Below the pieces are notes generated by a model that was given only the letters and a program-made list of their open reading frames with translations, searched no databases and was not told the origin of the DNA. This document shows positions 18,533-64,000 of a DNA stretch of 64,000 nucleotides, in pieces; positions within the stretch are counted from its first letter, which is position 1; every line of letters begins with the position of its first letter. Where the stretch lies: NCBI RefSeq assembly GCF_013122565.1, contig NZ_CP053258.1. One strand, given 5' to 3'. The position numbers were made by a program, and so were the translations under genes. This DNA is from Escherichia coli. Its GTDB lineage: Bacteria; Pseudomonadota; Gammaproteobacteria; Enterobacterales; Enterobacteriaceae.

Positions 18533-20794
18533 TTACATCTGACGGTTTTTATTGAAGTTAATCAAACTACCCGCCTTGATAATCTCGCGCTCTTCAGCAG
18601 TCAGATTTTCCATATAGAGCGTAATTTCCGTTACCGGCGCATCTTCATGGATCACATAACCTTTAAACGTCGTACCCGGATTATCCAGCGCCGCTTTAAT
18701 GCCAGGGATGTAAATGTAATCCCCCACTTCAAAGGTTGGCACTTCCGCCATCTGCAGAGGTAACATCCCCCAGTTGATGACGTTTGAACGGTAGCGTTTA
18801 GTCGCGTACTCCTCGGCAATATTCGCCAGACCGCCAATCACACGCTGGCAGCTCGCCGCCTGTTCACGCGCAGAACCATCGCCTGGTTTCACCGCATAGA
18901 CCATACTGCCAATTTCAGTTTGCAGCGGATCAATATGCTCCTGACCAGCAATCTGCTTAATGCGCGCAAACACCTCTGTCAGCTCGCTGACATTCCCCGC
19001 CAGACGCTGATTTTCCAGCTCAGCAGTCGCTTTACTTCTGCCAACATAACCGGGATCGCGGCGTGACAGGGTAAACTCCGCCAGACCAATCGGATTTGAA
19101 CGATAAGAAGAGGTTTCACCGGAAGGAATCAATTCGTCGGTGGTGGTCACTTCGTCGAGGATCTTCGAGCACACTTTGAGGACGATATTGTCAGTCAGCG
19201 CACCTAATTCCGGCCAGTCTTTAATGTTCGGTCCGTAAATCAGCGGTTGCTGAGTTGCCCCTTTCACAAAGCCCTGATAAACACGGTTTTTATACGGCGT
19301 TACATCGAAGGCGTACTCCGGCACGTTGTCCCAGCAATCAAGTTCGCTGGCAGAAGTTAAATAGCCACCGTTTGCCGCAGTCGCAGCGATAGAACGAGCG
19401 TCCATCAACGCCACCGCTGACATCTGCCCATTAGCTGGCTTAGAGCCTTCGCGGTTCGGGAAGTTACGCGTGGTGTGGCGAATACTCAAACCGTTGTTGA
19501 TTGGCGTATCGCCCGCGCCAAAGCATGGGCCGCAGAACGCGGTTCTGATGATTGCGCCTGCGCCAATCAAATCTGCTACCACACCTTTTTTGGCGAGATC
19601 CATAAACACCGGCTGTGATGACGGGTAAACCGCCAGCGAGAAGGTGTCGTTACCACAGGATTGACCGCGCAGCGCATTTGCTGCGGCGATAACGTTTTCA
19701 TAGTTACCGCCAGAACAGCCCGCGATAATCCCCTGCTGCACTTTCAGGCGACCGTTTTCCACTTTGTCCAGCAGCGAGAGTTTGGCTTTACCGTGCGCCA
19801 CGCGCTCGGACTCAATTTCAATCTCACGCAGAATGTCGGTCAGGTTCTGGTTCAGCGTGTCGATTTCATACACGTTGCTCGGGTGGAACGGCAGCGCAAT
19901 CATTGGTTTGATGGCGCTTAAATCAACGCTGATGCAGCCATCGTAGTACGCCATCGGTTGAGGGTTAAGCTGGCAGTAATCCTGGCCGCGACCGTGGAGC
20001 GCCAGCCAGTTATGGACTTCTTCATCGGTTTGCCAGACAGAACTTAAACAGGTCGTTTCAGTGGTCATAACGTCAACGCTGTTACGGAAATCGGTAGAGA
20101 GCTCAGCAACGCCGGGACCTACGAATTCCATCACTTTGTTTTTGACGTAGCCGTTTTTGAACACGGCACCGATGATAGCCAACGCCACATCCTGCGGCCC
20201 CACATACGGCGCTGGTTTTCCGGTCAGATGCACCGCAACAACTCCCGGATAGTCGATATCCCAGGTGTCATTAAGCAGCTGTTTTACCAACTCACCGCCG
20301 CCCTCACCGACTGCCATTGTCCCTAATGCACCGTAACGGGTGTGGCTGTCTGACCCGAGGATCATTTTGCCCCCGCCTGCCATCATCTCACGCATATATT
20401 GATGGATGACCGCAATATGCGGAGGCACAAAAATACCGCCATAACGCTGAGCTGCCGATAAACCAAAAACATGGTCATCACCGTTAATGGTGCCGCCGAC
20501 GGCGCAGAGTGAGTTATGGCAGTTGGTCAGCACATACGGCAGCGGGAAACGTTCCATTCCGGACGCTTTAGCGGTCTGTACAATACCAACAAAGGTAATA
20601 TCGTGAGAGGCTAATGAATCAAACTTAATTTTAAGTTTATCCATATTTCCGGACGTATTATGAGAAGAGAGAATAGACCAGGCAATAGTGCCTTTTTTGG
20701 CTTCTTCTTTTTTAATTTGGCCGGTGAAATGTTCTTCGGCAATTATTTCGTTATTACTGGCGAGAAACACGCCTTTTTCAGATAACTTGATCAT
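18533..20794 (-). CDS. ybhJ: Aconitase-family putative hydratase YbhJ, 753 aa
   Basis: ORF 18533..20818 with start at [10 protein letters not shown]. Confidence 0.88.
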
Positions 20795-20851
20795 TAAATG
20801 CTCCAGATATCTGCGCACCGTGAAGTGCGCAGAAAGATAATGAAGGGATAT

Positions 20852-22285
20852 TTACAGCATGTTCCAGCCGATCAGCATATTCCACCACCATACGCCGAGG
20901 GTGATATGCACCAGGAAGGTTAATATCGTCAGTACCGCACCGACCAACCACCAGGATTTAATATCGTTGTAACCCACGCCAAAGATGACCGGACCTGCCG
21001 CGCCGCCATAGTGAGTAACCATGCCGCCATAGGAGTTGGAGAACAACAGTGCCAGCGCGGTTAACATTAACGGTGCGCCGGAGACGTTCGCCAGCATGGC
21101 AAATACCGGTAACATAGCAACGATATAGGCACTACCGGAAGCGAAGAAATAACGCACGATGATGCTAAGGAAAATAATAACGAAGAAAGCAACGTTTCCG
21201 TGACCATCAAATGCCAGGTTATTTTTAAAGACTTCAGCTAACCATTCGAAGAATTTAACTTTCGATAATAAGGAACTTAAGCCGATAATACCGCCGTACC
21301 AGATTAAGGTATTCCAGCCGCCTTTATTTTTAACCACGTCTTCCCAGGTAACGATACCCAGCAGCAGCATGGTCGCCATAACAACAATAGCCACTGAAGA
21401 TTCATCAACCCCCAGAGACTTACTGAAAATCCAGCCCAGCAGCGCCAGCACAAAGACACCGAGCAGCATTTTTTCGCGGATTTTCATCGGTCCCAGTTCG
21501 GCAAGGCCCGCTTTGGCGATGGTTTTGTTATCCACCTTCTTAATTTCTGGCGGATACATGGTGTAAATCACCAGCGGGGTGACCAGCAGCATAATGATGC
21601 CCGGCAATCCGGCTGCCAGCGCCCATCCACCCCAGCTAATTTGCAGGTGCAGAATGTCGTTGATCATTTTCAGCGCCAGAATGTTCCCCGCCATTGCGGT
21701 AAAGAACATATAGCTGGTGGTTTTGGTGACCATGTAAATGGACATCATCAGGTAATGTCCGACACGACGCGGACTTTTTTCCGGTTCGGACCCCAAAGCC
21801 ACCGCCACACTGTTGATGATCGGTAACACAATGCCGCCCGCACGCGCGGTGTTAGACGGTGTTGCCGGAGCCAGTACCAGATCGAGGAATACCGTAACGT
21901 AACCCAGACCCAGCGTGGTGTTACCGATTTTACCAATCAGCAGATAGGCAATACGTTTACCTAAACCGGTGGTCACAAATGCGGCGCTTAAGGTAAACGC
22001 CGAGAACACCAGCCAGGTGGTACCTGAAGAGTAACCGCTTAATACGGCGGTGGTTTTAAACGCACCGTCGGATAAGTTACCGACCACCACCATGGAGGCA
22101 GCAACGGCAATTAACAGTACGACAGGTTCCGGGAAAGGCTTGATAACCAGACCCACAATGGCCGCCAGGTAAATACCAAAAAGCACCCACGCCAGTTCGC
22201 TTAATCCTGCCGGAGCTGGCATAAAGCCAATAATACATGGGATCGCTAATATCAGAATTAGCTTCCATAACGATTTCTTATTCAT
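20852..22285 (-). CDS. ybhI: DASS-family anion transporter YbhI
   Basis: 477-aa polytopic membrane ORF, recognised. Confidence 0.88.
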   Translation of the reverse strand: MNKKSLWKLILILAIPCIIGFMPAPAGLSELAWVLFGIYLAAIVGLVIKPFPEPVVLLIAVAASMVVVGNLSDGAFKTTAVLSGYSSGTTWLVFSAFTLSAAFVTTGLGKRIAYLLIGKIGNTTLGLGYVTVFLDLVLAPATPSNTARAGGIVLPIINSVAVALGSEPEKSPRRVGHYLMMSIYMVTKTTSYMFFTAMAGNILALKMINDILHLQISWGGWALAAGLPGIIMLLVTPLVIYTMYPPEIKKVDNKTIAKAGLAELGPMKIREKMLLGVFVLALLGWIFSKSLGVDESSVAIVVMATMLLLGIVTWEDVVKNKGGWNTLIWYGGIIGLSSLLSKVKFFEWLAEVFKNNLAFDGHGNVAFFVIIFLSIIVRYFFASGSAYIVAMLPVFAMLANVSGAPLMLTALALLFSNSYGGMVTHYGGAAGPVIFGVGYNDIKSWWLVGAVLTILTFLVHITLGVWWWNMLIGWNML

Positions 22286-22360
22286 TTAAAATCCTGTTCT
22301 TTCTGTATGACTCATACAGAAGTCCTTTATTGATTGTCCTTATCCTGACAACGAATTTTT

Positions 22361-23413
22361 TCAGGGAAGATAAACTTCACCGGAAAATATTTTTCTGGTC
22401 GTCCGAATAACAGATGCGCGTAACGTCGTGGCATCCTGACCTTCATTACTTAAATGAACGTCGAGCGCACCACTGGGGTGTTCAATATTGATATTGCCAT
22501 ATCCTACAGAAGGGACGATTTGTCGGGTGACGGTGCCTTCCAATGCACAACTACTGGAAATAGCAATAGCACCGGTTATCGCCAGCGCGCGATGGCAAGA
22601 ATGCGGCATAAAATAACGCACATTAATTGCCCCGCCTTTCTGCGCTGGAGAAATAAGCACAGGTTTAGGGATAACCATATTACTGACATCACCTAAGCCC
22701 ATTGCTTTACCCGCTTGTAGACGGATAGATTCAATGCGGGCTAATAATGCTTTGTCGGCATCCAGTTCCGCCGGTAATTCATAACCTGTTTTTCCCAGAT
22801 ATTCAGCCGGAATAATGACGACTGGCATCGCCATATCGATACAGGTCACCGGGACATCGTCAAAATAATCGATCTGATTATCAGTCGGGAAAACTTTTCC
22901 GGTTTTGGTTCCAGCGGCATTCAGGAAAGTGAGCGCAACCGGTGCGGCAGTACCCGGTACGCCGTCAATTCTGGCACTACCCTCGTACTCGACAACACCA
23001 TTTGGCGTTTGCACATCAGCTTCGATGAACGTACCCGTATTGACGTTGCGGATACGTACGCGAGTAACTGGCGAAGTCGCTGCAATCAAACCATTTTCAA
23101 TGGCGAATGCCCCAACACCAGACAGCATATTGCCGCAGTTAGGCGTGGTATCGACACGTTGCTCATGGACGATAACTTGAGCAAACAGATAATCAACATC
23201 AGCACGCGGATCGCTGGAACGGCTAATAATGGCGACTTTACTGGTCAGTGGATTACCGCCGCCAATACCGTCAATTTCCAGATCGTTACCGGAACCCATA
23301 ATTGCCATCAATATTTTATCGCGCTGCGTTTGATCTTCGGGTAAATGTTCCGCTAACAGGAACGCGCCCCTCGAGGTTCCACCTCGCATCATCACGCAGG
23401 GTATTTTTTTCAT
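22361..23413 (-). CDS. ybhH: PrpF-family putative isomerase YbhH
   Basis: 350-aa ORF, recognised. Confidence 0.88.
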   Translation of the reverse strand: MKKIPCVMMRGGTSRGAFLLAEHLPEDQTQRDKILMAIMGSGNDLEIDGIGGGNPLTSKVAIISRSSDPRADVDYLFAQVIVHEQRVDTTPNCGNMLSGVGAFAIENGLIAATSPVTRVRIRNVNTGTFIEADVQTPNGVVEYEGSARIDGVPGTAAPVALTFLNAAGTKTGKVFPTDNQIDYFDDVPVTCIDMAMPVVIIPAEYLGKTGYELPAELDADKALLARIESIRLQAGKAMGLGDVSNMVIPKPVLISPAQKGGAINVRYFMPHSCHRALAITGAIAISSSCALEGTVTRQIVPSVGYGNINIEHPSGALDVHLSNEGQDATTLRASVIRTTRKIFSGEVYLP

Positions 23414-23595
23414 AATAATGCCCTCAATTTAAAAACATAACTTATTGCGATATGGTTACATTAAGGACAAAACCGCACTAATGACTTTATCTTCACGATT
23501 AATTACTTTTTTTCATTAATTTAAGTGATTAAAATGCAGTTAAACGGTTTAAAGCGAAACGCTAAAAGAGAACCTTTCCATTTTCTGGAGTAGTA

Positions 23596-24552
23596 ATGAA
23601 GCATGAATTATCAAGTATGAAGGCATTTGTCACTCTGGCAGAGTCGACTTCATTTAACAACGCCGCCAAATTACTTAACATTACACAACCCGCGTTAACG
23701 CGAAAAATAAAAAAGATGGAAGAAGATTTACATATTCAACTTTTTGAGCGTACAACTCGCAAGGTTACATTAACAACAGCGGGGAAAATGTTGCTTCCTG
23801 AGGCGCGGGAATTAATAAAAAAATTTGATGAAACACTTTTTAATATTCGGGAAATGAATCATTACCATCGTGGTATAGTGACATTAGCGTGTATTCCGAC
23901 CGCCGTGTTCTATTTCTTGCCATTGGCGATCGGCAAATTTAATGAGCTATATCCCAATATTAAAGTGCGGATTCTGGAACAAGGCACGAATAATTGCATG
24001 GAATCGGTGCTGTGCAACGAATCTGATTTTGGCATAAACATGAACAACGTCACAAATTTATCTATCGATTTTACTCCCCTGGTCAACGAGCCATTCGTGC
24101 TGGCCTGTCGGCGTGACCATCCTTTAGCCAAAAAGCAGCTAGTGGAATGGCAGGAGTTAGTCGGTTACAAAATGATTGGCGTACGCTCCTCCAGCGGCAA
24201 CCGATTGTTGATTGAACAAAATTTGGCCGACAAACCCTGGAAACTGGACTGGTTTTACGAAGTGCGCCATCTTTCAACGTCATTAGGACTGGTGGAGGCT
24301 GGACTGGGAATTTCGGCACTACCAAGCCTGGCAATGCCTCATGCGCCCTCTTCTTCTATTATTGGTATCCCCCTGGTAGAACCAGTAATTCGCCGCACAT
24401 TGGGTGTGATTCGCCGTAAAGATGCAGTGCTTTCTCCAGCAGCAGAACGCTTTTTTGCGTTACTTATTAATTTGTGGACTGACGATAAGGATAATCTGTG
24501 GACCAAGATCGTTGAACGTCAGAGACAGACATTACAGGTGATGGGAAAATAA
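23596..24552 (+). CDS. ybhD: LysR-type transcriptional regulator YbhD
   Basis: N-terminal HTH (FVTLAESTSFNNAAKLLNITQPALTRKIKKMEEDL), divergent from ybhH. Confidence 0.88.
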   Translation: MKHELSSMKAFVTLAESTSFNNAAKLLNITQPALTRKIKKMEEDLHIQLFERTTRKVTLTTAGKMLLPEARELIKKFDETLFNIREMNHYHRGIVTLACIPTAVFYFLPLAIGKFNELYPNIKVRILEQGTNNCMESVLCNESDFGINMNNVTNLSIDFTPLVNEPFVLACRRDHPLAKKQLVEWQELVGYKMIGVRSSSGNRLLIEQNLADKPWKLDWFYEVRHLSTSLGLVEAGLGISALPSLAMPHAPSSSIIGIPLVEPVIRRTLGVIRRKDAVLSPAAERFFALLINLWTDDKDNLWTKIVERQRQTLQVMGK

Positions 24553-50913: not shown

Positions 50914-52482
50914 TTAGCGTGCCGGCTGAGTAGTCGTGGAAGACTGCTCAAAGTGATAGCGACCGGTTTTCAGGCTGCTTGGGCCGAGGCGTGCAAACTT
51001 GAACATTAAGAACAATTCTGCCACCAGGAACAGGGTATACAGGCCGCAAATCAGCACCATTGAGAAGATGAGATCGCCTGCGGTCAGTGACGAGTTCGCC
51101 ACAGCTGTCGGCAGCACTTCACCGATAGCCCACGGTTGGCGGCCATATTCAGCCACGAACCAGCCCGCTTCTACAGCAATCCACGGCAGCGGAATACCGT
51201 ACAGCGCGGCGCGCAGCAGCCATTTTTTCTCGCCAATGCGGTTGCGGATGACACTCCAGAAAGAGAGCGCGATGATTGCCAGCAGCAGGAAGCCACACGC
51301 CACCATGATACGGAACGCGAAGTACAGCGGCGCTACACGCGGAATGGAGTCTTTGGTTGCCTGTTGAATCTGAGCTTCAGTCGCATCAGCCACGTTTGGC
51401 GTATAGCGTTTCAGCAGCAGACCGTAACCGAGGTCTTTCTTCATGCTATTGAACTGGTCACGAACCGCCTGGTCGGTAGAACCAGAACGCAGTTGTTCGA
51501 GCAGAGAGTAAGCCTTCATCCCGTTACGAATGCGTTCTTCATGCTGCACCATCAGTTCTTTCAGGCCGATAACTGGAGTATCCACGGAACGCGTTGCAAT
51601 GATGCCCAGCGCGTAAGGGATCTGGATCGCAAATTTGTTCGTCTCCTCTTCCTGATCAGGAATGCCGAACAGAGTAAAGGCAGCAGGCGCAGGTTGCGTT
51701 TCCCACTCGGCTTCAATAGCAGCCAGTTTGGTTTTCTGCACGTCGCCCATTTCGTAACCAGATTCATCACCCAGAACAATAACAGACAGAACGGCAGCCA
51801 TACCGAAGCTGGCAGCGATAGCAAAGGAGCGTTTAGCGAAGGCGAAGTCACGACCTTTCAGCATATACCATGCGCTGATACCGAGGATGAACATCGCGCC
51901 AGTCACATAACCAGACGCTACAGTGTGAACGAATTTCACCTGAGCAACCGGGTTAAGCACCAGCTCGGAGAAGCTCACCATCTCCATACGCATAGTTTCA
52001 AAGTTGAAATCGGACGCGATTGGGTTTTGCATCCAGCCGTTCGCAACCAGAATCCACAGTGCGGACAGGTTTGAACCGAGCGCCACCAGCCAGGTGACAC
52101 ACATATGCTGAACTTTACCCAGACGATCCCAACCGAAGAAGAACAGACCTACAAAGGTGGATTCGAGGAAGAAGGCCATCAGACCTTCGATTGCCAGCGG
52201 CGCACCGAAGATATCCCCTACATAGTGGGAATAGTAAGACCAGTTAGTCCCGAACTGGAACTCCATAGTCAGACCGGTAGCCACACCCAGAGCGAAGTTG
52301 ATACCAAACAACTTGCCCCAGAACTTGGTCATATCTTTATAAATCTGTTTGCCGGAAAGGACGTAGACCGTTTCCATAATGGCCAGCAGGAACGCCATAC
52401 CGAGCGTCAGTGGCACAAAAAGGAAGTGGTACATCGCGGTCAAGGCAAACTGTAAGCGCGACAGTTCGACTATATCTAACAT
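50914..52482 (-). CDS. cydA: Cytochrome bd-I ubiquinol oxidase subunit I CydA, 522 aa
   Basis: ORF 50914..52485, start at second Met ([20 protein letters not shown]). Confidence 0.96.
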
Positions 52483-52819
52483 CATGACTCCTTGCTCATC
52501 GCATGAAGACTCCGAGAGTGAACCCCGTTAGAAAGGGTCACACGCATGCCCCAATACAAAATTATTTGCTCGCCTCTATCGTTGCCATTTCATCAAAAGA
52601 GGAAAAGACAATGATAAAAAAGTTGCAAATATGTTAATGAATAAACCAAATTGATCCCGTAATTATATTACGCCGCAAAATCCTTACAATAAACAGGTTT
52701 TTATTGAGCAAATTTGCATTTTTCGACAGTGATCAATTTATAGCGAAATTGTCACGATCTCACCAATTTGATCTACGACAATTTATCGTGTTTTGCAGAT
52801 TTTTTTCAAGAATTAAAAA

Positions 52820-52833
52820 TTGATTTATATCAA
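52820..52833. promoter_or_regulatory. FNR-consensus palindrome in the cydAB upstream region
   Basis: ttgatttatatcaa = TTGAT-N4-ATCAA exactly, about 340 nt upstream of cydA; the cydAB promoter is known to be FNR/ArcA controlled. Confidence 0.7.
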
Positions 52834-53287
52834 AACTAACCAAATATGTTAATTATGTATAAACCATAGATCATTAGTGATTTTATTGTTAATTTATTGT
52901 GAAATATTTATGCAACACAATTATTACAATGAAAAGGTATAGATAAAAAACCAGTGTTGTATTTAACAGAACCGCCTTATCCACTTTTTATAATACCAAT
53001 TGATTAGAGTAGCCAATTTGTTGCTATTTTACATAACATATTTTTATCAAAGTTAATTGATTGTTGCCTTTATGAGCACCGACCGTAAGCCCGTTATGTT
53101 ATTGTTTCATTGGTAATAATCACTTAAATGTATCGATGGAACAGGTATGACTTAGCGGGAGTGATTGTTTCTGAGTGAACAGGGGCCACTTTTGCCTGAT
53201 AAATGAAAAATGAGCGATTTTTGCAAGTTAGTTTTTCTATAGCCGTGTACGCTCAGCGCCTCGCTTGATTACAATGAGGTTGCTGCT

Positions 53288-54232
53288 ATGAGTCCTGATA
53301 ATATCGGTTCGGCTGTCAATCGCTTCTCAGGTTGGCCATCTAATGATCCTCTAAAAACAGATAAAGAATCAACGACATCACCCGTGACAGTGCAGGTAAT
53401 AAAGATGATTGCCGCCATCCTTGACCCACATCGGATAGTCGTTGGAATCGATACACTTTATACAACGCAGCGCGAAACATTTACCTCAGAGAGTCAACAG
53501 CTCATTGAATCAGCATTGCAAACACTTCATGTGATGAATTTAAATAACCTGGAAACAAATCGCGATGAAGAAGGTCACTATCTGGCTTTTGAATATAACG
53601 TTGACACCTCTGACAGAATAACCGTTTCTGCTTACAATGAAAAAAATCCTGGCTGCTATGGCCAATGTCTTTTAATACAGGATGACGAAACAGACTTATT
53701 CAACCTGATAAAAATTAAAATTTTTGAAGCCAGGCATAATTATGTCGCTCAATTGATGAGCGATCCAGAATTTATGTTCAAATTCAGTTATAGCGCTCAA
53801 CAAAATAGATTAGAACCTCATCTTCTGGTTCCCGCTTATTTCCCTCTAAAAACAAACGAACCGGTTACGCAAGAGGATGTACTGTTACTTTATCGTTTCT
53901 TTAAAATGAATGATGATTTTAACAAATTAACATCAGATGAATACATGAGTATCCTGACACCTCTGATGAAGTGTGAGCGTAGCGTCCACGACAACAACAG
54001 GTATGTGACGGGCAAAGATACCCTTCTTCTGGACTATCCTCCTTCTGGTAACCAGATACATTTCCATGTTTTCCCTGACGAATCAGCAACACTAGTCCTT
54101 TATTTTTCAAACAATGACCTTGAATATTTCGTCTTTGAAAGAGATATTCCGAGCCAGTATCGCTTTTTCAAAATGTTTACCAATCTGGCACTGGTTATAG
54201 ATCAGTTAACCGAAGCCCATAAAATACTTTAA
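53288..54232 (+). CDS. Hypothetical protein (314 aa), AT-rich, no family recognised
   Basis: ORF track; GAGG RBS 7-10 nt upstream; soluble, Ser/Pro/Asn-rich N-terminus. Confidence 0.55.
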   Translation: MSPDNIGSAVNRFSGWPSNDPLKTDKESTTSPVTVQVIKMIAAILDPHRIVVGIDTLYTTQRETFTSESQQLIESALQTLHVMNLNNLETNRDEEGHYLAFEYNVDTSDRITVSAYNEKNPGCYGQCLLIQDDETDLFNLIKIKIFEARHNYVAQLMSDPEFMFKFSYSAQQNRLEPHLLVPAYFPLKTNEPVTQEDVLLLYRFFKMNDDFNKLTSDEYMSILTPLMKCERSVHDNNRYVTGKDTLLLDYPPSGNQIHFHVFPDESATLVLYFSNNDLEYFVFERDIPSQYRFFKMFTNLALVIDQLTEAHKIL

Positions 54233-54312
54233 TTTTCTATATATCCCTATGGCAAATATTGCTAAACAATGCCTGGGGATTAATTTTTATTACTCACGGA
54301 AAGATTTAAATA

Positions 54313-54735
54313 ATGATATCATCTCAGATCTCTTTCAGTACTCTTCCTGTCAATGCAACATACGCTTCAGAGACAACAGTTGACACACAAAAATTCTCTG
54401 ACATCCTCTACTCAGCGGGGTGTTCCCTAAAGGATATGGCTTATCTGAGCAGATGTCTGGCATCAATACACCCGACTATCGCCAAAAACATTTATGAAAC
54501 AGAAAATCTCAGCGATCAAAAATTACTGCATATTGATTGCCGTAGTACAAATGACATCAAGATAAATATCTTTTTTGGTCAGCAACGAGAAGGATTAATT
54601 GAAATTAGTTCTGACACAGTTATTTTTTCGATACTGTCTTCATTGATTGACTCCGCCATTTCTAAATTTCAACATCAAAACCCGGTTAACGGTTCAGTTA
54701 ATCCTGAACTATTGTATGAGGATTATACTGATTAA
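54313..54735 (+). CDS. Hypothetical small acidic protein (140 aa), AT-rich
   Basis: ORF track; 80 nt downstream of the 314-aa ORF on the same strand; Ser-rich N-terminus. Confidence 0.5.
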   Translation: MISSQISFSTLPVNATYASETTVDTQKFSDILYSAGCSLKDMAYLSRCLASIHPTIAKNIYETENLSDQKLLHIDCRSTNDIKINIFFGQQREGLIEISSDTVIFSILSSLIDSAISKFQHQNPVNGSVNPELLYEDYTD

Positions 54736-55281
54736 ATCCACCCTGTCGCGAAAAATGGCCTGCGTTATTGCCAGACGTAATAAAACCTTTGATTAACGTT
54801 ACTCATACTGATAGCACCTTCATGTACCTCTCTTTTTTACGCAAATCAAAAGAGCTAACGAAGGTCATAATTCGCATGAATCATTAACCATTTGTTATTT
54901 TCAACATTACTTTTACATTAAGCAGAAATGAATGGTAGTGAAATTCGACTTAAATTTTATGAAATGCATTTACTTATGGCTAAACCCATATCACTAAAAT
55001 GCAAATTAGAAGTAGATCACAAATATCTCAATACACCAAATCAAGTTAATTTTAAAAATTTAACATTCATGACATTAGTTGACATAACACACTGAATTAA
55101 CATGGAAATTTAAAAACACACTTTAAACAATCATTTCCCGAAAGACATTTTGAAAATAGATCAATTGCAACATTACGGTCAGATAAAGACACTCCTGTGA
55201 TATTAAACCTGTGCCGTTATGAACGGCCATAAATACGACGTGTGTAACTTATTTTACTCTCTGTCTTACAAAGGATTACCC

Positions 55282-55731
55282 ATGAAGAAAGCAACACTTG
55301 TGATTGGCGTTATTGGCGCGGACTGCCATGCAGTAGGCAATAAAGTTCTGGACCGCGTTTTTAGCAACCACGACTTCAGAGTCATTAATCTGGGCGTAAT
55401 GGTCAGCCAGGACGAATATATTGATGCTGCCATTGAAACTGGCGCTGACGCGATTGTCGTCTCCTCTATCTATGGGCATGGCGATATCGACTGTCTGGGC
55501 ATGCGCGAACGCTGCATCGAGCGTGGACTGGGGGACATCCTGCTCTATGTGGGCGGTAACCTGGTGGTAGGAAAACATGACTTCGCTGACGTGGAAAACA
55601 AGTTCAAAGAGATGGGATTTGATCGCGTCTTTGCCCCAAGTCATGACTTAGAAGAGGTTTGTCAGCTGATGGCCCACGATATCAACCAACGTCATGACGT
55701 TGATACTCGCATTCTTGAAGAGGCAATCTGA
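55282..55731 (+). CDS. glmS: Glutamate mutase (methylaspartate mutase) S / sigma subunit, B12-binding, 149 aa
   Basis: ORF 55219..55731 with start at [22 protein letters not shown] (cobalamin-binding DxHxxG-type motif); family assignment from recognised conservation. Confidence 0.85.
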
Positions 55732-57119
55732 TGCAAATCGTCTCTGTCGATATTGGATCGACGTGGACCAAAGCAGCCCTCTTCACCCGGGAGGGGGACG
55801 CGTTAACGTTGGTTAACCACGTACTGACCCCAACCACCACCCATCATCTGGCGAAGGGGTTTTTCTCCAGCCTGAACCAGGTGTTAAACGTAGATAATGC
55901 CCTCCCCCTGTTAAACAGCGGTGAGGTTGCATTGAAGTATTCCTCCTCTGCCAAAGGTGGGCTGGCGGTTGCCGCAATGGGATTGGTGCCTTCTATCACC
56001 CTGGAAACCGCGAAAGTAACCGCTCACTCTGCGGGTGCTAAAATTGCGCAATATTACGCCTACAAGCTGAACCGCCGTGATATCCAGGCACTGGAAGAAA
56101 CGCAGCCCGATATTCTCTTGTTCACCGGCGGCACCGACGGCGGAGAAGAAAGCTACGGACTGAATAACGCCCGTGTGCTGGCAGAATCCAAACTCGACTG
56201 CGCCATTATTTATGCCGGAAACCGGGATATTCAGGACGAGGTGCAGGAGATCCTCGGACATAAAGACCTGACCATCGTCGACAACGTTCTGCCCGATCTT
56301 GACCATCCGAACCCTTTAGCCGCACGCCAGGCTATCTGCGACATATTCCTTAAACGCATCGTTAAAGGGAAAGGGCTGGATGTCATTGTTGATAAAACAG
56401 GCGAAGAACCAATGCCGACACCATGGACGGTCTTTGAACTGGTTAAGGCAATCAGTAACGTCGATCACAGCTGGAAAGAGTTCATGCTGATCGACATGGG
56501 CGGCGCAACCACCGATGTCTATTCCGCCTGTGCCAACACGCTCTCGCCCGACACCGTTTTACACGGCGTACCGGAACCCTTCGTAAAACGGACGGTGGAA
56601 GGCGATCTGGGAATGCGCGTCTCGGCAATGGTGGTTGGTGAAAGTGCGAAAGAGTTAGTCAATGTAAATTTTGCTCAGCAACCCGCACAGCTGGACGCTT
56701 TTTATCATTACCTCCGTCATTTAGTCGCTCATCCCGACTACTTACCCGCGAATGCAGAAGAAAAATATTTCGATACCGTCCTGGCCGGACTGTGTGTGGG
56801 TTATGCCACCGAAAGACATGCGGGCACCAAAAAAGAGGTCTGCACCTGCGTCGGCAATGTCGATTTACAAATGGGACGTGACCTGACAACCGTGCGTAAA
56901 GTCGTCGGATCCGGCGGATGGCTCTCGCGTGCCAGTCAGTTCGATATGCATCACTGGTTGAAATACCGCGAGTTAAACGACGACGGTAAACGCATTCTCT
57001 TACCGACCGAATTTGAATATTACCGCGATTCCCGGGGGCTATTACCACTGCTGGCAAACGTCGCCAGAGTCGATCCGCTGGCCGCCGCGCGCACCAGTAT
57101 TCAATGCTTAACCCTATAA
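55731..57119 (+). CDS. glmL: Glutamate mutase-associated protein GlmL/MutL (ASKHA-like)
   Basis: 462-aa ORF between S and E subunit genes ([18 protein letters not shown]); start shares one nt with the preceding stop. Confidence 0.75.
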   Translation: MQIVSVDIGSTWTKAALFTREGDALTLVNHVLTPTTTHHLAKGFFSSLNQVLNVDNALPLLNSGEVALKYSSSAKGGLAVAAMGLVPSITLETAKVTAHSAGAKIAQYYAYKLNRRDIQALEETQPDILLFTGGTDGGEESYGLNNARVLAESKLDCAIIYAGNRDIQDEVQEILGHKDLTIVDNVLPDLDHPNPLAARQAICDIFLKRIVKGKGLDVIVDKTGEEPMPTPWTVFELVKAISNVDHSWKEFMLIDMGGATTDVYSACANTLSPDTVLHGVPEPFVKRTVEGDLGMRVSAMVVGESAKELVNVNFAQQPAQLDAFYHYLRHLVAHPDYLPANAEEKYFDTVLAGLCVGYATERHAGTKKEVCTCVGNVDLQMGRDLTTVRKVVGSGGWLSRASQFDMHHWLKYRELNDDGKRILLPTEFEYYRDSRGLLPLLANVARVDPLAAARTSIQCLTL

Positions 57120-57137
57120 CAATTAAGGCTGCAATCA

Positions 57138-58583
57138 ATGGAACTTCGAAATAAGAAATTAACCCATGACGAATTCATGACCGAGCGGCAACAGGTACTG
57201 AAAACCTGGGAAACCGGCAAGGATGTTGAAAATTTTGAAGATGGCGTTAAATACCAACAAACCATTCCTGAGCATAAACGCTTCTCTCTCGCCCTGCTGA
57301 AAGCAGACAAGGAAGGTAAAACCCTTAGCCAACCGCGCGCAGGTGTGGCGCTGATGGACGAACACATCGAACTACTGAAAACACTACAAGAAGAGTGCGA
57401 TCTGCTGCCAAGCACCATCGATGCATATACCCGTCTGAATCGGTACGAAGAAGCGGCTGTAGGGATTAAAAAATCCATCGAAGCCGGAACCTCTAAACTG
57501 AACGGTTTACCGGTAGTTAACCACGGAGTCGCAGCTTGCCGTCGCCTCACCGAAACCCTGCAAAAACCGCTACAGATCCGCCACGGCACGCCAGATGCGC
57601 GTCTGCTGGCTGAAATCTCGATGGCCAGTGGCTTTACCAGTTACGAAGGCGGCGGCATTTCCTACAACATTCCGTATGCCAAACGCGTAACGCTGGAAAA
57701 ATCGATCCGCGACTGGCAGTACTGCGACCGTTTAATGGGGATGTATGAAGAACACGGGATCCGCATCAACCGCGAACCATTTGGCCCACTAACGGGTACG
57801 CTGATCCCGCCGTTTATCTCGCACTCTATCGCCATAATCGAAGGCTTGCTGGCGCTGGAACAGGGTGTGAAATCTATCACCGTTGGTTATGGCCAGGTCG
57901 GCAGCCTGACGCAGGATGTTGCGGCGATCCAGTCTCTGCGTGAACTTGCACATGAATACTTTCAGAGCTATGGCTATACCGACTATGAATTAAGTACCGT
58001 GTTTCACCAGTGGATGGGCGGCTTTCCGGAAGACGAATCGAAAGCGTTCGCTATTATCTCCTGGGGCGCAGCCGTCGCGGGGATGTCTGGTGCCACCAAA
58101 GTCATCACCAAAAGTCCGCACGAAGCCTGGGGTATCCCAACTGCCGCTGCCAACATTCAGGGGCTGAAAGCCTCCCGCCAGATGCTCAACATGGTCAATG
58201 AGCAGAAATTCCCGCCATGCCCTGCGGTTGAACTGGAAATTGAACTGATTAAGAGCGAGGTTCGCGCGGTACTGAATAAAGTGTTCGAACTGGGTAATGG
58301 TGATATTGCGCGCGGTACGGTGCTGGCATTTGAAGCGGGCGTACTGGATGTGCCGTTTGCGCCAGCCGCCTGCAACGCGGGCAAAATTCTTCCGGTCCGT
58401 GACAACACCGGCGCGATACGCGTACTGGAAGCCGGAGCCGTTCCATTGCCAAAAGATATTCTCGACCTCCACCACGATTACGTTGCGGAACGCGCACGCT
58501 GTGAAGGACGCCAACCGACATTCCAGATGGTTGTAGATGACATCAATGCTGTATCCCACAGTAAATTAATAGGAAGACCATAA
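57138..58583 (+). CDS. glmE: Glutamate mutase (methylaspartate mutase) E / epsilon subunit
   Basis: 481-aa ORF, characteristic size and position. Confidence 0.8.
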   Translation: MELRNKKLTHDEFMTERQQVLKTWETGKDVENFEDGVKYQQTIPEHKRFSLALLKADKEGKTLSQPRAGVALMDEHIELLKTLQEECDLLPSTIDAYTRLNRYEEAAVGIKKSIEAGTSKLNGLPVVNHGVAACRRLTETLQKPLQIRHGTPDARLLAEISMASGFTSYEGGGISYNIPYAKRVTLEKSIRDWQYCDRLMGMYEEHGIRINREPFGPLTGTLIPPFISHSIAIIEGLLALEQGVKSITVGYGQVGSLTQDVAAIQSLRELAHEYFQSYGYTDYELSTVFHQWMGGFPEDESKAFAIISWGAAVAGMSGATKVITKSPHEAWGIPTAAANIQGLKASRQMLNMVNEQKFPPCPAVELEIELIKSEVRAVLNKVFELGNGDIARGTVLAFEAGVLDVPFAPAACNAGKILPVRDNTGAIRVLEAGAVPLPKDILDLHHDYVAERARCEGRQPTFQMVVDDINAVSHSKLIGRP

Positions 58584-59824
58584 TGAAAATAAAACAGGCC
58601 CTGTTCACCGCTGGCTATTCCTCATTCTATTTCGATGACCAGCAGGCGATAAAAAACGGAGCGGGTCACGACGGCTTTTTTTATACCGGGGAGCCAGTAA
58701 CACAGGGGTTTAACGCCGTACGTCAGGCCGGGGAGTGCGTATCGGTACAGTTGATTCTGGAAAACGGCGCGGTCGCTGTAGGTGACTGTGCTGCCGTACA
58801 GTATTCCGGGGCAGGTGGTCGCGATCCACTGTTCCTCGCAGAGCACTTTATTCCGTTCCTCAACGACCATATTAAGCCATTACTGGTAGGCCGCGATGTG
58901 GATACTTTCCTGCCGAATGCCCGTTTCTTCGACAAATTGCGTATTGACGGCAACTTGCTGCATACCGCCGTGCGCTACGGATTATCACAGGCGCTGCTTG
59001 ATGCTACCGCGCTGGCAACCGGCCGTCTGAAAACTGAAGTGGTCTGTGATGAATGGCAGTTGCCACGCGTGGCGGAATCCATTCCATTATTTGGTCAGAG
59101 CGGCGACGATCGATATATCGCCGTCGATAAGATGATCCTTAAGGGCATCGACGTGCTGCCCCATGCGCTGATTAATAACGTCGAAGAGAAGCTGGGCTTT
59201 AAAGGTGAAAAACTGAGCGAATATGTCCGCTGGTTGTCGGATCGCATTCTAAGCAAGCGCACCAGCGCGCGCTACCACCCTACCCTGCACATCGATGTAT
59301 ACGGCACTATCGGTCTGATCTTCGATATGGATCCGCTCCGCTGTGCGCAATACATCGCCAGCCTGGAAAAAGAAGCGCAAGGCCTGCCGCTCTACATCGA
59401 AGGGCCGGTCGATGCCGGTAACAAGCCCGATCAAATTCGCCTGCTGACCGCGATTACCAAAGAGCTGACGCGCCTCGGTTCCGGCGTGAAAATTGTGGCC
59501 GATGAATGGTGTAACACCTACCAGGATATTGTTGATTTCACTGATGCTGCCAGTTGTCACATGGTGCAAATCAAAACCCCGGATCTGGGCAGTATTCACA
59601 ACATCGTCGATGCGGTTCTTTACTGCAACAGCCACAGCATGGAAGCGTACCAGGGCGGCACCTGCAATGAAACTGATGTCAGTGCCCGCACCTGTGTCCA
59701 CGTCGCCCTTGCCGCTCGCCCTATGCGTATGCTGGTAAAACCAGGGATGGGCTTTGACGAAGGCCTCGATATCGTCTTCAACGAAATGAATCGTACTATC
59801 GCGCTGTTGCAGGCTAAGGATTAA
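58583..59824 (+). CDS. Methylaspartate ammonia-lyase (enolase superfamily)
   Basis: 413-aa ORF (MKIKQALFTAGYSSFYFDDQQAIKNGAGHDGFFYTGEP...), directly after the mutase genes. Confidence 0.8.
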   Translation: MKIKQALFTAGYSSFYFDDQQAIKNGAGHDGFFYTGEPVTQGFNAVRQAGECVSVQLILENGAVAVGDCAAVQYSGAGGRDPLFLAEHFIPFLNDHIKPLLVGRDVDTFLPNARFFDKLRIDGNLLHTAVRYGLSQALLDATALATGRLKTEVVCDEWQLPRVAESIPLFGQSGDDRYIAVDKMILKGIDVLPHALINNVEEKLGFKGEKLSEYVRWLSDRILSKRTSARYHPTLHIDVYGTIGLIFDMDPLRCAQYIASLEKEAQGLPLYIEGPVDAGNKPDQIRLLTAITKELTRLGSGVKIVADEWCNTYQDIVDFTDAASCHMVQIKTPDLGSIHNIVDAVLYCNSHSMEAYQGGTCNETDVSARTCVHVALAARPMRMLVKPGMGFDEGLDIVFNEMNRTIALLQAKD

Positions 59825-59827
59825 CAA

Positions 59828-61198
59828 ATGGCTCGTTCTTTTAAAGTCTTATCGCCAACGGCAATCCTCGGGTATGGATTCCCGGAAGAGAGCTTCCGCA
59901 AAGCGATGGCAGAATCGCCCGATCTGATCGCCGTTGATGCCGGCTCTTCCGATCCAGGCCCCCACTACCTCGGGGCAGGCAAACCGTTTACCGATCGCGC
60001 AGGGGTCAAGCGCGATCTGCGCTATATGATCACCGCAGGCGTGCAAAATAATATACCGGTGGTGATCGGAACGGCTGGCGGTTCTGGTGCCGCACCACAC
60101 CTGGAGTGGTGCCGAGAAATAATTCATGAGATTGCCCGGGAAGAGCACCTCTCGTTCTCGATGGCGTTGATCCCGGCAGACGTTGACAAAGCCATCGTCC
60201 ACCAGGCGCTGGATAACGGCAAAATCACGGCGCTGGATTTTGTCCCGCCGTTAACCCACGACGCGATTGACGAAAGTACGTATATCGTTGCGCAAATGGG
60301 CATCGAACCCTTCCAGCGGGCTCTGAAAGAAGGCGCGCAAGTGGTGCTGGGCGGGCGCGCTTACGACCCGGCCTGCTTTGCTGCGCTCCCGATCATGCAA
60401 GGCTTTGATGAAGGTCTGGCGCTGCATTGTGGGAAAATCCTTGAGTGCGCAGCAATCGCCGCAACGCCCGGCTCAGGCTCTGACTGTGCGATGGGCATCA
60501 TTGATGACAACGGCTTTACGCTGAAGACATTTAATCCGAAGCGTAAATTTACCGAAACGTCAGCAGCTGCACACACACTGTATGAAAAATCCGATCCCTA
60601 CTTCCTGCCAGGACCTGGCGGCGTGTTGAACCTGAAAGGCTGCACATTTAAAGCAGTCAATGACGGCGAAGTCTACGTCAGCGGTTCTAAGCATGAAGAA
60701 ACGCCGTATGCCCTGAAACTGGAAGGTGCACGACGGGTGGGCTTCCGCTGTCTGACCATCGCCGGAACGCGCGACCCGATCATGATCGCCGGGATCGATA
60801 AAATCATCGATGAAGTCAAAATCAGCGTTTCGCGTAACCTGTCGCTTGACGATGACAGCATTCGCATCAATTTCCACCTGTACGGCAAAAACGGGGTGAT
60901 GGGCGACCATGAACCGATGCAAACTACCGGGCATGAGCTGGGGATTGTCCTTGATGTAGTTGCACCGACCCAGGAAATTGCCAACAGCGTTTGCTCGCTG
61001 GTGCGCTCTACCATGCTGCACTACGGCTATGAAAACCGCATCGCTACCGCAGGCAACCTGGCGTTCCCGTTCTCCCCTTCTGATATCCAGGGCGGGCCGG
61101 TATACGAATTTTCCATATATCACCTGATTGAAGCCAACGACGCTCTGCGTTTTGATTTCCATATTGAACAGGTGACGCCAGAAGGAGTTCAGGTATGA
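59828..61198 (+). CDS. DUF1446 (AtuA-like) family protein, function unknown
   Basis: 456-aa ORF; family assignment from memory of conserved N-terminal region; unverified. Confidence 0.55.
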   Translation: MARSFKVLSPTAILGYGFPEESFRKAMAESPDLIAVDAGSSDPGPHYLGAGKPFTDRAGVKRDLRYMITAGVQNNIPVVIGTAGGSGAAPHLEWCREIIHEIAREEHLSFSMALIPADVDKAIVHQALDNGKITALDFVPPLTHDAIDESTYIVAQMGIEPFQRALKEGAQVVLGGRAYDPACFAALPIMQGFDEGLALHCGKILECAAIAATPGSGSDCAMGIIDDNGFTLKTFNPKRKFTETSAAAHTLYEKSDPYFLPGPGGVLNLKGCTFKAVNDGEVYVSGSKHEETPYALKLEGARRVGFRCLTIAGTRDPIMIAGIDKIIDEVKISVSRNLSLDDDSIRINFHLYGKNGVMGDHEPMQTTGHELGIVLDVVAPTQEIANSVCSLVRSTMLHYGYENRIATAGNLAFPFSPSDIQGGPVYEFSIYHLIEANDALRFDFHIEQVTPEGVQV

Positions 61199-61512
61199 AA
61201 CAGTCAATTGTCTCACTGGCGCAAGTCATTCGTTCGAAAAATGCCGGTCCTTACGAACTGGTTTTAGATATTTTATTTAAAACGAAAGAAAACTATGAGC
61301 GAGTTAAATCATCAGGGCAATTAACCCCAGAACTGATTGCGCGCTTATATCATGTTGAACCTGACTTTATTCATCGTATTGTCTGGTTTGATCCTTCTAA
61401 CGCAGTAAAAATCGTCATGCCACGAGATATTATCTCCGGGAATGTAGGTGACAATGATGTCTATGGTGCACAGCAACATGCACCTTTATTAAATATGAGT
61501 TTCGATTTGTAA
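61195..61512 (+). CDS. Small protein (105 aa), likely DUF4387 partner of the DUF1446 protein
   Basis: Start overlaps the upstream stop by 4 nt (ATGA), which is direct evidence of tight gene coupling; family name from memory. Confidence 0.5.
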   Translation: MKQSIVSLAQVIRSKNAGPYELVLDILFKTKENYERVKSSGQLTPELIARLYHVEPDFIHRIVWFDPSNAVKIVMPRDIISGNVGDNDVYGAQQHAPLLNMSFDL

Positions 61513-61672
61513 AAATCCGAACACTTTTAGCCAACTGACATCCCATCACTTATTGCAGTTCAACACTTCAGCTATTTGTAAGGTTGTAATAGCAGGTAGA
61601 TGCCTGAGTCTCTATTCAGGCATCTACTTCTCCTGATTCTGATTTATCGCCGTGCACCTGATGGAGGAAAAA

Positions 61673-62953
61673 ATGAAGAAAATAAGTTTAACCACGATGA
61701 TTCTTTTGGCGCTGGTACTTGGAATGATTATCGGCGTAGTGCTCAATAACACTGCTTCACCGGAAACCGCAAAACTCTATGCGCAAGAAATATCGATATT
61801 CACGACGATTTTCTTACGACTGATAAAAATGATTATCGCTCCGTTAGTGGTCTCTACCCTGGTGGTAGGTATAGCTAAAATGGGCGATGCCAAAGCCCTT
61901 GGTCGTATTTTTTCTAAAACACTTTTTTTATTTATTTGCGCCTCATTGCTGTCAATTGCCTTAGGCTTGATAACAGTAAATTTCTTCATGCCAGGCACAG
62001 GAATTAATTTTGTTGCACACGGAGCCGAAACCACCGGAGTGGTCGCGTCAGAACCCTTTACGCTAAAAGTATTTATTTCGCATGCTTTCCCCACCAGCAT
62101 TGTCGATGCCATGGCGCACAATGAAATTTTGCAAATCGTGGTGTTCTCAATTTTCCTCGGCTGTAGCCTGACGGCGATTGGCGAGAAAGGCAGCGCCATC
62201 GTTCACGCCTTAGATTCGCTGGCACATGCCATGTTAAAGCTCACTGGCTACGTCATGCTCTTCGCTCCCCTGACCGTATTCGCCGCTATTTCAGCATTGA
62301 TTGCTGAACGAGGACTGGCAGTTATGGTGAGCGCCGGGATCTTTATGGGTGAATTTTATTTCACCATGTTGTTACTTTGGGTACTGCTTATCGGTCTGGC
62401 CATCGTTTATGTCGGCCCCTGCATCAGACGCCTGACCCGCGCCCTTTCGGAACCCGCCCTGCTGGCATTTACCACATCCAGTTCTGAAGCGGCTTTTCCG
62501 GGAACGCTTGAAAAACTGGAGCAATTTGGCGTTTCCCCCAAAATTGCCAGCTTTGTCTTACCCATTGGCTACTCATTTAATCTCGTTGGATCAATGGCCT
62601 ACTGCTCCTTCGCCACAGTTTTCATCGCCCAGGCCTGCAATATCCATTTATCCATCGGTGAGCAAATCACCATGCTGTTGATCCTGATGTTGACCTCGAA
62701 AGGAATGGCTGGCGTACCACGCGCCTCAATGGTGGTTATCGCCGCCACGCTCAACCAGTTCAATATTCCGGAAGCAGGGCTGATCTTGCTGATGGGCGTT
62801 GATCCGTTCCTTGATATGGGGCGTTCCGCGACAAACGTCATGAGCAACGCAATGGGCGCTGCGATGGTGAGTCGGTGGGAAGGCGAACATTTCGGCGAGG
62901 GCTGTCGGGGTAAAGCATTAAAACCCAATGAATCGAACGTTGCTCTGCCCTGA
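61673..62953 (+). CDS. Dicarboxylate/amino acid:cation symporter (DAACS, GltP-like), probably glutamate/aspartate uptake
   Basis: ORF 61652..62953; start chosen at ATG 61673 with GGAGG RBS; polytopic membrane protein with GltP-family character. Confidence 0.8.
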   Translation: MKKISLTTMILLALVLGMIIGVVLNNTASPETAKLYAQEISIFTTIFLRLIKMIIAPLVVSTLVVGIAKMGDAKALGRIFSKTLFLFICASLLSIALGLITVNFFMPGTGINFVAHGAETTGVVASEPFTLKVFISHAFPTSIVDAMAHNEILQIVVFSIFLGCSLTAIGEKGSAIVHALDSLAHAMLKLTGYVMLFAPLTVFAAISALIAERGLAVMVSAGIFMGEFYFTMLLLWVLLIGLAIVYVGPCIRRLTRALSEPALLAFTTSSSEAAFPGTLEKLEQFGVSPKIASFVLPIGYSFNLVGSMAYCSFATVFIAQACNIHLSIGEQITMLLILMLTSKGMAGVPRASMVVIAATLNQFNIPEAGLILLMGVDPFLDMGRSATNVMSNAMGAAMVSRWEGEHFGEGCRGKALKPNESNVALP

Positions 62954-63060
62954 GGGGGATCTTAAGCAATCAGAAGCCAATGACTACGCATTTTTATAAG
63001 CCGGATCATGAAGTTAGACGGCAATTAAGTAACACTAACGTTTAAGGTGAAAAGTGAAAT

Positions 63061-64000
63061 ATGTCCAAACCATTTATCTGGCAAGAACCGTTTCTACAAA
63101 ATAAAGACGGTACAGAATATACATTAATTAGCGATCAACATATTACAGTAACGGAATTAGACGGCGAAGAAGTGATAAAAATCGCTCCTGAAGCATTAAC
63201 GCTGCTTGCCCGGCAGGCATTTTATGAAGCCTCTTTTTTCTTACGTTCCGCTCATTTGCAACAGGTCGCCAGCATTCTTAACGATCCGCAGGCCAGTAGT
63301 AATGATAAATACGTTGCGTTGCAGTTATTACGTAATGCTGAAGTCTCAGCAAAAGGGGTATTACCCAACTGTCAGGATACCGGCACCGCAACTATTGTTG
63401 CCAGGAAAGGGCAACAGATATGGACCGGAGGTAACGACGCTGAAGCCTTAAGCAAAGGCATTTACACCACTTTCCAGGAAAATAATCTGCGCTTTTCACA
63501 AAATGCGCCGCTGGATATGTATACCGAAGTCAATACGCAAACCAATCTCCCGGCGCAGATTGATATCAGCGCCGTCGCTGGTGATGAGTACCATTTTCTC
63601 TGTGTTAATAAAGGGGGCGGCTCCGCCAATAAAGCCACGCTTTATCAGGAAACCAAATCCTTATTGCAACCAGAAAAACTGACCGCATTTTTAATCGAAA
63701 AAATGAAATCGCTGGGCACCGCTGCCTGCCCGCCTTACCACATCGCCTTTGTCGTCGGAGGGCTTTCAGCCGATCAAACCTTAAAAGTTGCCAAGCTGGC
63801 TTCTACGAAATATTACGACAATTTGCCCACCAGCGGAAACGAGCAGGGACAAGCATTCCGTGATATTGAGCTGGAAAAAGTGATGCTCGAGGCCAGTCAG
63901 CAATTTGGTATTGGTGCGCAATTTGGGGGTAAATATTTCGCTCATGATATTCGCGTCATTCGTCTGCCGCGTCACGGTGGCTCCTGCCCGATAGCTATGG
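63061..64000 (+). CDS. fumD: Class I fumarate hydratase paralog (FumA/FumB-like; mesaconase/fumarase FumD-type), 3' end beyond window
   Basis: Hand translation from ATG 63061, open to the window end: [23 protein letters not shown]...CQDTGTA...GGGSANKA...[12 protein letters not shown], collinear with FumA; not in ORF track because truncated. Confidence 0.8.

Follow-up and report, generated by a model that had tools for sequence, protein, structure and literature searches.

[quoted passage not shown] In the same work FumD was characterised as a mesaconase/fumarase that produces (S)-citramalate, and it remained open what becomes of this (S)-citramalate in E. coli O157:H7. Extracts rich in citrate lyase, isocitrate lyase or methylcitrate-pathway activity showed zero citramalate lyase activity, i.e., citramalate is left uncleaved by E. 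coli's own citrate lyase, by isocitrate lyase and by methylisocitrate lyase, and none of the known E. coli lyases acts on it. Moreover, genes of the family III CoA-transferase/citramalyl-CoA lyase type are missing from most enterobacteria (PMC4682846). As neither the role of the DUF1446 protein nor the fate of citramalate was solved in that study, the question was truly open in 2015, and the reasoning of a first-pass annotation of this DNA, namely that the pathway needs a citramalate-cleaving step, agrees with it.

More recently, cmlAB of Raoultella planticola, a gift from the Berg laboratory, was used for the in vivo conversion of citramalate to pyruvate and acetate (bioRxiv 10.64898/2026.01.16.699985). 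It was shown that in E. coli mesaconate can supply acetyl-CoA via FumA and Cml, that curing of the cml plasmid abolishes the mesaconate-dependent growth of an acetyl-CoA auxotroph and that isotope labelling agrees with the mesaconate-FumA-Cml route. Racemic citramalate did not support growth with Cml, and for Cml to work on mesaconate the host first had to be evolved in the laboratory. CmlAB is introduced in the preprint without a literature reference, and ATP is nowhere mentioned there. Furthermore, two structures were released in the PDB, 9ERQ ("Citramalate lyase - AMPPNP - citramalate complex"; October 2025) and 9EVF ("Citramalate lyase - ADP - pyruvate complex"; 2025-10-08).

The window, i.e., the whole stretch of 64,000 nucleotides that was analysed (E. 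coli, GCF_013122565.1, contig NZ_CP053258.1), holds an island that sits between cydAB and sucCD, and the remainder of the window, from ybhP to cydAB, belongs to the common core genome of E. coli (96–99% identity). According to NCBIfam matches and RefSeq annotation the island consists, in this order, of two AT-rich hypothetical genes, glmS, glmL, glmE, mal, the gene pair cmlA/cmlB, a symporter gene and fumD (Table 1). The frame of fumD is open to the window end, and the orthologous locus is annotated as class I fumarate hydratase; past the window end, the RefSeq annotation of the collinear E. coli O157:H16 chromosome places cobO and a LysR regulator. The symporter was named "GltP" by Kronen and Berg (PMC4682846).

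Table 1. Features of the island within the analysed window (positions counted from the first nucleotide of the window).
Feature	Position	Strand	Evidence and remarks
glmS, methylaspartate (glutamate) mutase subunit S, B12-binding	55282..55731	+	NCBIfam NF002612 equivalog, 253 bits; RefSeq orthologous locus; the mechanical ORF opens earlier, at 55219
glmL (mutL), methylaspartate mutase accessory/reactivating protein	55731..57119	+	NF040745, 511 bits; TIGR01319, 895 bits
glmE, methylaspartate mutase subunit E	57138..58583	+	NCBIfam TIGR01503, 866 bits
mal, 3-methylaspartate ammonia-lyase (methylaspartate to mesaconate and NH3)	58583..59824	+	NCBIfam TIGR01502, 544 bits
cmlA, predicted large citramalate lyase subunit (AtuA/DUF1446 family)	59828..61198	+	456 aa, ATG start
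cmlB, predicted small citramalate lyase subunit (DUF4387)	61195..61512	+	105 aa, ATG start
Hairpin in the cmlB-transporter spacer	61594..61629	+	16-bp, perfect or near-perfect; arms 61594-61609 and 61614-61629
DAACS-family dicarboxylate/amino acid:cation symporter, putative glutamate uptake	61673..62953	+	DctA/GltP-type NCBIfam matches of 304-314 bits, below the equivalog cut-offs; RefSeq orthologous locus; RefSeq start used, mechanical ORF from 61652 (GTG)
fumD, class I fumarase/mesaconase (mesaconate to (S)-citramalate)	63061..64000	+	N-terminal 313 codons; the window end cuts the gene

The first-pass annotation had described two ORFs of these lengths that share a 4-nt ATGA overlap and lie between the ammonia-lyase and the transporter genes; the ORF list and the sequence confirm the former and the NCBIfam assignments of the neighbours the latter. 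The junction reads ...caggtATGAaac..., with the ATG of cmlB at 61195-61197 and the TGA of cmlA at 61196-61198, so that in ...AAGGAGttcaggtATGAaa... the four nucleotides ATGA contain both the cmlB start codon and the cmlA stop codon. A Shine-Dalgarno motif AAGGAG (61182-61187) is located 7 nt 5' of the cmlB ATG, and AAGGA (59816-59820) is found 7 nt 5' of the cmlA ATG; 3 nt separate this ATG from the mal stop codon (59822-59824). The strand region 61505-61660, which covers the spacer hairpin, folds with a minimum free energy of -35.7 kcal/mol (z -2.49); the hairpin is without a clear U-tract and is flagged weakly in the terminator scan. Promoter and terminator scans returned sites no more numerous than in shuffled sequence, and in Rfam no riboswitch or other RNA family was matched in 52400-64000, including the 550-bp leader 5' of glmS.

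Both ORFs are genuine genes and not chance ORFs, since they are annotated as CDSs in RefSeq E. coli, are kept with 95–99% DNA identity over their full length in 1121 complete genomes and recur elsewhere in the same order, an AtuA gene followed by a DUF4387 gene. Both Pfam models are matched significantly by adjacent genes with a 4-nt overlap: CmlA belongs to AtuA (PF07287, formerly DUF1446; E 2.6e-18, a weak match of 66.5 bits) and CmlB to DUF4387 (PF14330; E 2.9e-39), and neither protein matches a further Pfam family. Among the models of NCBIfam release 20 none matches CmlA or CmlB.

A phmmer search against the PDB assigned both proteins to the solved enzyme. CmlA matches 9erq_A/9evf_A over residues 1-455 (E 5.5e-291, 968 bits), chains named [quoted passage not shown], and CmlB matches 9erq_B/9evf_B over residues 1-104 (E 5.2e-57), named [quoted passage not shown]. 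The identity amounts to 91.9% for CmlA and 84.6% for CmlB. Moreover, a template-free AlphaFold2 model of CmlA (pLDDT 86.7) superimposes on 9evf_A in Foldseek with a TM-score of 0.94, i.e., the fold of the solved large subunit is shared. The enzyme of 9ERQ/9EVF is likewise composed of two subunits, a 456 aa AtuA family protein and a 105 aa DUF4387 protein with the same predicted fold, and the Raoultella planticola and PDB CmlAB are of the same enterobacterial operon type, the PDB chains being equated with the Raoultella enzyme by name only. In contrast to the PDB CmlAB, the pair of the window is from an E. coli lineage, and approximately 8% of the residues differ in CmlA and 15% in CmlB. By sequence, the pair is an orthologue of the CmlAB citramalate lyase.

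The identity of CmlAB as citramalate lyase is already public and is not a discovery of this analysis. A full-text literature search matched Kronen and Berg (2015) and one 2026 preprint and returned no primary description of CmlAB, and therefore the function as citramalate lyase is based on the names and titles given by the PDB depositors and on this preprint. What is direct in the present analysis is the orthology, the fold match, the synteny and the pairing of the subunits, while the reaction itself is taken from others. The ligands and names of 9ERQ and 9EVF bear out the earlier guess of a role in "citramalate processing", and the accompanying statement that the role of the pair is not established has been outdated since the October 2025 PDB releases and the 2026 preprint.

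On this basis, the two genes very probably encode CmlA and CmlB, a two-subunit citramalate lyase with a role in the methylaspartate pathway encoded by this operon. Glutamate would be imported by the symporter and converted by the B12-dependent GlmSE, with GlmL and CobO as helper proteins, to (2S,3S)-3-methylaspartate, which Mal would deaminate to mesaconate. Hydration of mesaconate by FumD would yield (S)-citramalate, and in the last step of the pathway CmlAB would cleave (S)-citramalate to pyruvate and acetate. The ATGA overlap together with the own Shine-Dalgarno motif of cmlB may couple the synthesis of CmlA and CmlB, which would function together in one complex.

The pair is present in 1125 of 5426 complete E. 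coli genomes, which corresponds to approximately one fifth and includes O157:H7. At a coverage of at least 80% the pair is found in 1121 genomes; for the 8.8-kb operon as a whole the number is 1117. E. coli thus practically never carries the pair without the rest of the operon. For homologues of 34–64% identity the gene contexts were read from contigs by exact-protein look-up, and 10 of 11 gave a context. The DUF4387 gene comes directly after the AtuA gene in each of the 11 loci, the most distant of which has 34% identity; in several of the loci the two ORFs share a 4-nt overlap, and natural AtuA-DUF4387 fusion proteins of approximately 610 aa exist, which carry DUF4387 at the C-terminus. These overlaps and fusions fit an enzyme for which both subunits are obligatory. 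In total, the AtuA/DUF4387 family comprises 2382 clusters at 50% identity (E ≤ 1e-3).

The neighbourhoods change with the distance to the E. coli pair. At 64% identity, in a Riflebacteria MAG, and at 62% identity, in another phylum, the order is GntR-glmS-mutL-glmE-mal-AtuA-DUF4387-(P-loop-like protein of 313–317 aa)-fumarase. The loci at 55 and 48% identity encode neither glutamate mutase nor Mal; here split class I fumarase genes (Fumerase/Fumerase_C) share the operon with the pair, an M20 peptidase and a divergent AraC regulator are found in both, and an amidohydrolase and a DcuC-type transporter follow downstream in the 55% locus only. At 34–50% identity the contexts differ (MFS and FAD-binding proteins, isochorismatase, LacI, GGDEF/EAL) or cannot be judged because the contigs are short. 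In this small sample the Cml clade appears to reach its limit between 48 and 44% identity. Fumerase genes are found in five of the six homologous loci (48–64% identity) with enough flanking sequence, and in the window this association with a mesaconase recurs, with fumD located two genes downstream of the pair. As the fumarase is kept in the loci of the Cml clade, the conserved partner is the citramalate-making enzyme, as it is expected for a citramalate lyase. The sets of cmlAB, mesaconase, M20 peptidase, amidohydrolase, DcuC and AraC genes that are devoid of glutamate mutase, found in some Firmicutes-like and other metagenomic genomes, might point to a catabolic route that converges on mesaconate/citramalate.

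Two other ways to cleave citramalate were considered at the level of gene content. The classical citramalate/citrate lyase (CitDEF with CitC/X/G; Clostridium tetanomorphum) has no sequence or fold relationship to CmlAB, and unlike its gene sets the island encodes neither an acyl-carrier subunit nor the genes for the phosphoribosyl-dephospho-CoA prosthetic group; CmlAB binds an adenine nucleotide instead. The island contains no CitD/CitF/CitE or CitC/X/G genes. For a route via citramalyl-CoA, no family III CoA-transferase or HpcH/CitE-like lyase is encoded in the island or in the homologous clusters, and neither CitD/E/F nor citramalyl-CoA lyase genes were found in the clusters at 48–64% identity. 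With Pseudomonas AtuA and the AtuA/DUF4387 families the pair shares homology at the family level and the pairing of a large and a small gene, of which fused versions exist, whereas CmlA matches the Pfam model weakly and the gene neighbourhoods differ. To our knowledge, AtuA itself has no established biochemical function, and therefore the family name gives no mechanism.

Next to the identity of the enzyme, the role of the nucleotide has to be considered. According to their titles, both solved complexes hold an adenine nucleotide together with either substrate or product. The N-domain of CmlA has as its nearest non-self fold neighbours enzymes of the amino-acid-kinase fold, such as N-acetylglutamate kinase, aspartokinase and carbamate kinase, and this match is very weak. 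Enzymes with this fold mostly phosphorylate carboxylates using ATP, which would fit the presence of the nucleotide in the CmlAB crystals. Because of AMPPNP and ADP in the crystals and these weak fold neighbours, we suggest that the adenine nucleotide probably takes part in CmlAB catalysis. The glycine-rich loops DAGSSDPGP (37-45) and GTAGGSGAA (81-89) belong to the best-conserved parts of CmlA, and G15, D42, G44, G87, G158, G176, R177, D180, E206, C207 and H249 are invariant across the family alignment, located in or near the glycine-rich loops and the segment HCGKILEC.

The isocitrate lyase/PEP mutase superfamily likewise performs a CoA-independent C-C cleavage of a hydroxy-polycarboxylate with release of a carboxylic acid. 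For isocitrate lyase a carboxylate aci-anion is a chemically feasible leaving group. By analogy, CmlAB might be a citramalate lyase in which the nucleotide has a structural or allosteric role only and in which a direct metal- or acid-base-catalysed retro-aldol cleavage of the isocitrate lyase type proceeds without any phospho-intermediate, an explanation to which we give a chance only slightly below even. The feasibility of the aci-anion leaving group is in its favour, as is the preprint, which gives a direct cleavage to pyruvate and acetate and leaves ATP unmentioned (bioRxiv 10.64898/2026.01.16.699985), and the invariant Glu206-Cys207 as well as the conserved H200 and K203 of HCGKILEC could act as acid-base residues. 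However, the pairing of nucleotide with substrate or product in both deposited complexes, the nearest fold neighbours being ATP-dependent amino-acid-kinase-fold enzymes that are mostly carboxylate kinases, albeit with a weak match, and the high conservation of the glycine-rich loops in CmlA argue against a merely structural nucleotide.

Alternatively, the nucleotide might participate chemically. ATP would transiently phosphorylate the C4 carboxylate of citramalate, and by this the leaving group would be an acyl-phosphate enolate and not a carboxylate dianion; the phosphate would then be returned to ADP or be released as acetyl phosphate. This transient acyl-phosphate mechanism in CmlAB is put forward tentatively, as we regard it as possible at distinctly less than even chance. 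Extending it to the whole class, CmlAB would be the first characterised AtuA/DUF4387-class enzyme that cleaves hydroxy-carboxylic acids without CoA or ACP and with an ATP recycled via an acyl-phosphate, and the Cml clade would have a second physiological role; we consider this combined reading rather unlikely, and parts of it may already stand in the depositors' own work.

The assignment as citramalate lyase has also to be weighed against other identities of the pair. It is very unlikely that the pair constitutes an enzyme of acyclic terpene utilisation, or another AtuA-family enzyme, with its placement in the operon being incidental or reflecting a side reaction such as the detoxification of a by-product. 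The Pfam AtuA match (PF07287) of CmlA, the RefSeq name "acyclic terpene utilization AtuA family protein" and the unrelated contexts of the distant AtuA/DUF4387 pairs at 34–50% identity would fit such an enzyme, but the weak Pfam match is a family label rather than a function, and the chain with which CmlA shares 92% identity was deposited as a citramalate lyase, in complexes with citramalate and with pyruvate. Moreover, no further Atu genes are found nearby, and the synteny with mal and fumarase is held across phyla.

A service of the pair to the cofactor of glutamate mutase, i.e., B12 delivery, reactivation or adenosylation, instead of the conversion of an intermediate, was raised earlier as "cofactor handling" and is even less probable. 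The dependence of the operon on adenosylcobalamin and the adenine nucleotide bound by the solved enzyme would fit such a service, yet GlmL and CobO, the dedicated helpers encoded in the island, already provide for B12 reactivation and adenosylation, the solved complexes hold citramalate or pyruvate and no corrinoid, and the homologues at 48–55% identity occur with fumarase genes and without any B12 enzyme. Finally, that cmlA encodes a second methylaspartate ammonia-lyase, the name under which the homologues P0002, P0060 and P0074 are listed in their source ("3-methylaspartate ammonia-lyase") and an annotation whose frequency was noted by Kronen and Berg (PMC4682846), can be dismissed, as CmlA shows no sequence or fold similarity to MAL and no match to Pfam MAAL_N/MAAL_C, the enolase superfamily or NCBIfam, its fold matches 9ERQ/9EVF only, and the true Mal is encoded directly upstream (544 bits).

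The practical worth of the assignment of the pair to CmlAB lies in annotation. The RefSeq E. coli records searched still read "AtuA family" and "DUF4387", some records name cmlA methylaspartate ammonia-lyase, and the function is missing from RefSeq, Pfam and NCBIfam. For biotechnology, CmlAB represents a small, two-gene citramalate lyase that is independent of CoA and ACP and has already been used in synthetic pathways. For the biology of E. coli, CmlAB would fill the sole gap in the enterobacterial methylaspartate pathway, i.e., the fate of (S)-citramalate that was open in 2015; with it, every step that leads from glutamate to pyruvate, acetate and ammonia would be encoded in the 1125 of 5426 complete E. 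coli genomes that have the pair.

For the gene pair cmlA and cmlB (59828-61512), which encodes the two subunits of the citramalate lyase, the database annotation is behind the published structures. In the RefSeq records of E. coli that were searched, cmlA is labelled 'acyclic terpene utilization AtuA family protein' and cmlB 'DUF4387 domain-containing protein'. The name '3-methylaspartate ammonia-lyase' is attached to several homologues, and NCBIfam release 20 contains no model for either the CmlA or the CmlB subunit. The closest match of the pair among 5426 complete E. coli genomes shows 99.0% identity, and core regions of the window are 96.7-98.8% identical to the collinear O157:H16 reference chromosome. 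These identities point to a somewhat divergent Escherichia lineage to which no sequenced reference strain is closely related.

The window also differs from the O157:H16 reference at positions 1-3830, and 2260-2922 is the only stretch of the first 3.8 kb that aligns. After ybhL, the reference has a single ybhM, whereas the window has three consecutive ORFs for Bax-inhibitor-1/YccA-like membrane proteins, followed by two small AT-rich hypothetical ORFs (see table), an arrangement that suggests either an insertion or a local expansion of paralogues. Moreover, the core-genome cluster ybhD-ybhH-ybhI-ybhJ was placed at approximately 18500-24500, coordinates inferred from BLAST collinearity with 26429-31434 of L013, a stretch collinear with the window. 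The cluster resembles a further, uncharacterised module for organic-acid catabolism.

The left end of the glutamate-to-pyruvate-plus-acetate island (52600-55200) is strongly AT-rich, with 30-40% GC compared to about 52% in the surroundings. The 314-aa and 140-aa proteins encoded there found no match in an NCBIfam search. The leader of about 550 bp preceding glmS has no match in Rfam and is therefore taken to hold no cobalamin riboswitch. Further downstream, cmlB is separated from the transporter gene by a spacer of 140-160 nt containing a 16-bp hairpin without a clear U-tract. This hairpin may stabilise the mRNA or serve in its processing; alternatively, it could act as a partial terminator and thereby determine how much enzyme transcript is made relative to transporter transcript.

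Coordinates of the features discussed
Feature	Location	Coordinates	Strand	Details
Small hypothetical ORF	window	587-1057	-	AT-rich
Small hypothetical ORF	window	1134-1538	-	AT-rich
Bax-inhibitor-1/YccA-like ORF	window	1520-2371	-	
Bax-inhibitor-1/YccA-like ORF	window	2242-2955	-	
Bax-inhibitor-1/YccA-like ORF	window	3025-3729	-	
ybhL	window	3873-4658	-	
ybhD, ybhH, ybhI, ybhJ	window	~18500-24500		LysR; PrpF/4-oxalomesaconate tautomerase-like; anion permease; aconitase-like hydratase
Hypothetical protein ORF	window	53288-54232	+	314 aa, 'hypothetical' in RefSeq
Hypothetical protein ORF	window	54313-54735	+	140 aa, 'hypothetical' in RefSeq
16-bp hairpin	window	61594-61629	+	arms 61594-61609 and 61614-61629, loop 4 nt
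313-317 aa gene	L002	11712-12665		directly 3' of cmlB
313-317 aa gene	L003/L004	11677-12618		directly 3' of cmlB
cmlAB-fumarase operon	L008	9001-16596		55% identity
cmlAB-fumarase operon	L011	9001-11961		48% identity

In contrast to the E. coli operon, the non-enterobacterial glm-mal-cmlAB clusters (L002 and L003/L004) conserve an additional gene right behind cmlB. Pfam assigns no family to its product, and matches of the Walker-A/P-loop type near residues 40-65 are weak; the protein may serve the lyase or the pathway as an accessory NTPase or kinase.

At the more distant homologue loci L008 and L011, cmlAB share an operon with an M20 peptidase gene and split genes for class I fumarase, and a divergent AraC regulator is present at both. 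L008 additionally encodes a DcuC-type transporter and an Amidohydro_3 protein. Glutamate mutase and mal are absent from both loci. This suggests an undescribed route converging on mesaconate/citramalate, perhaps starting from an N-acyl or amide derivative.
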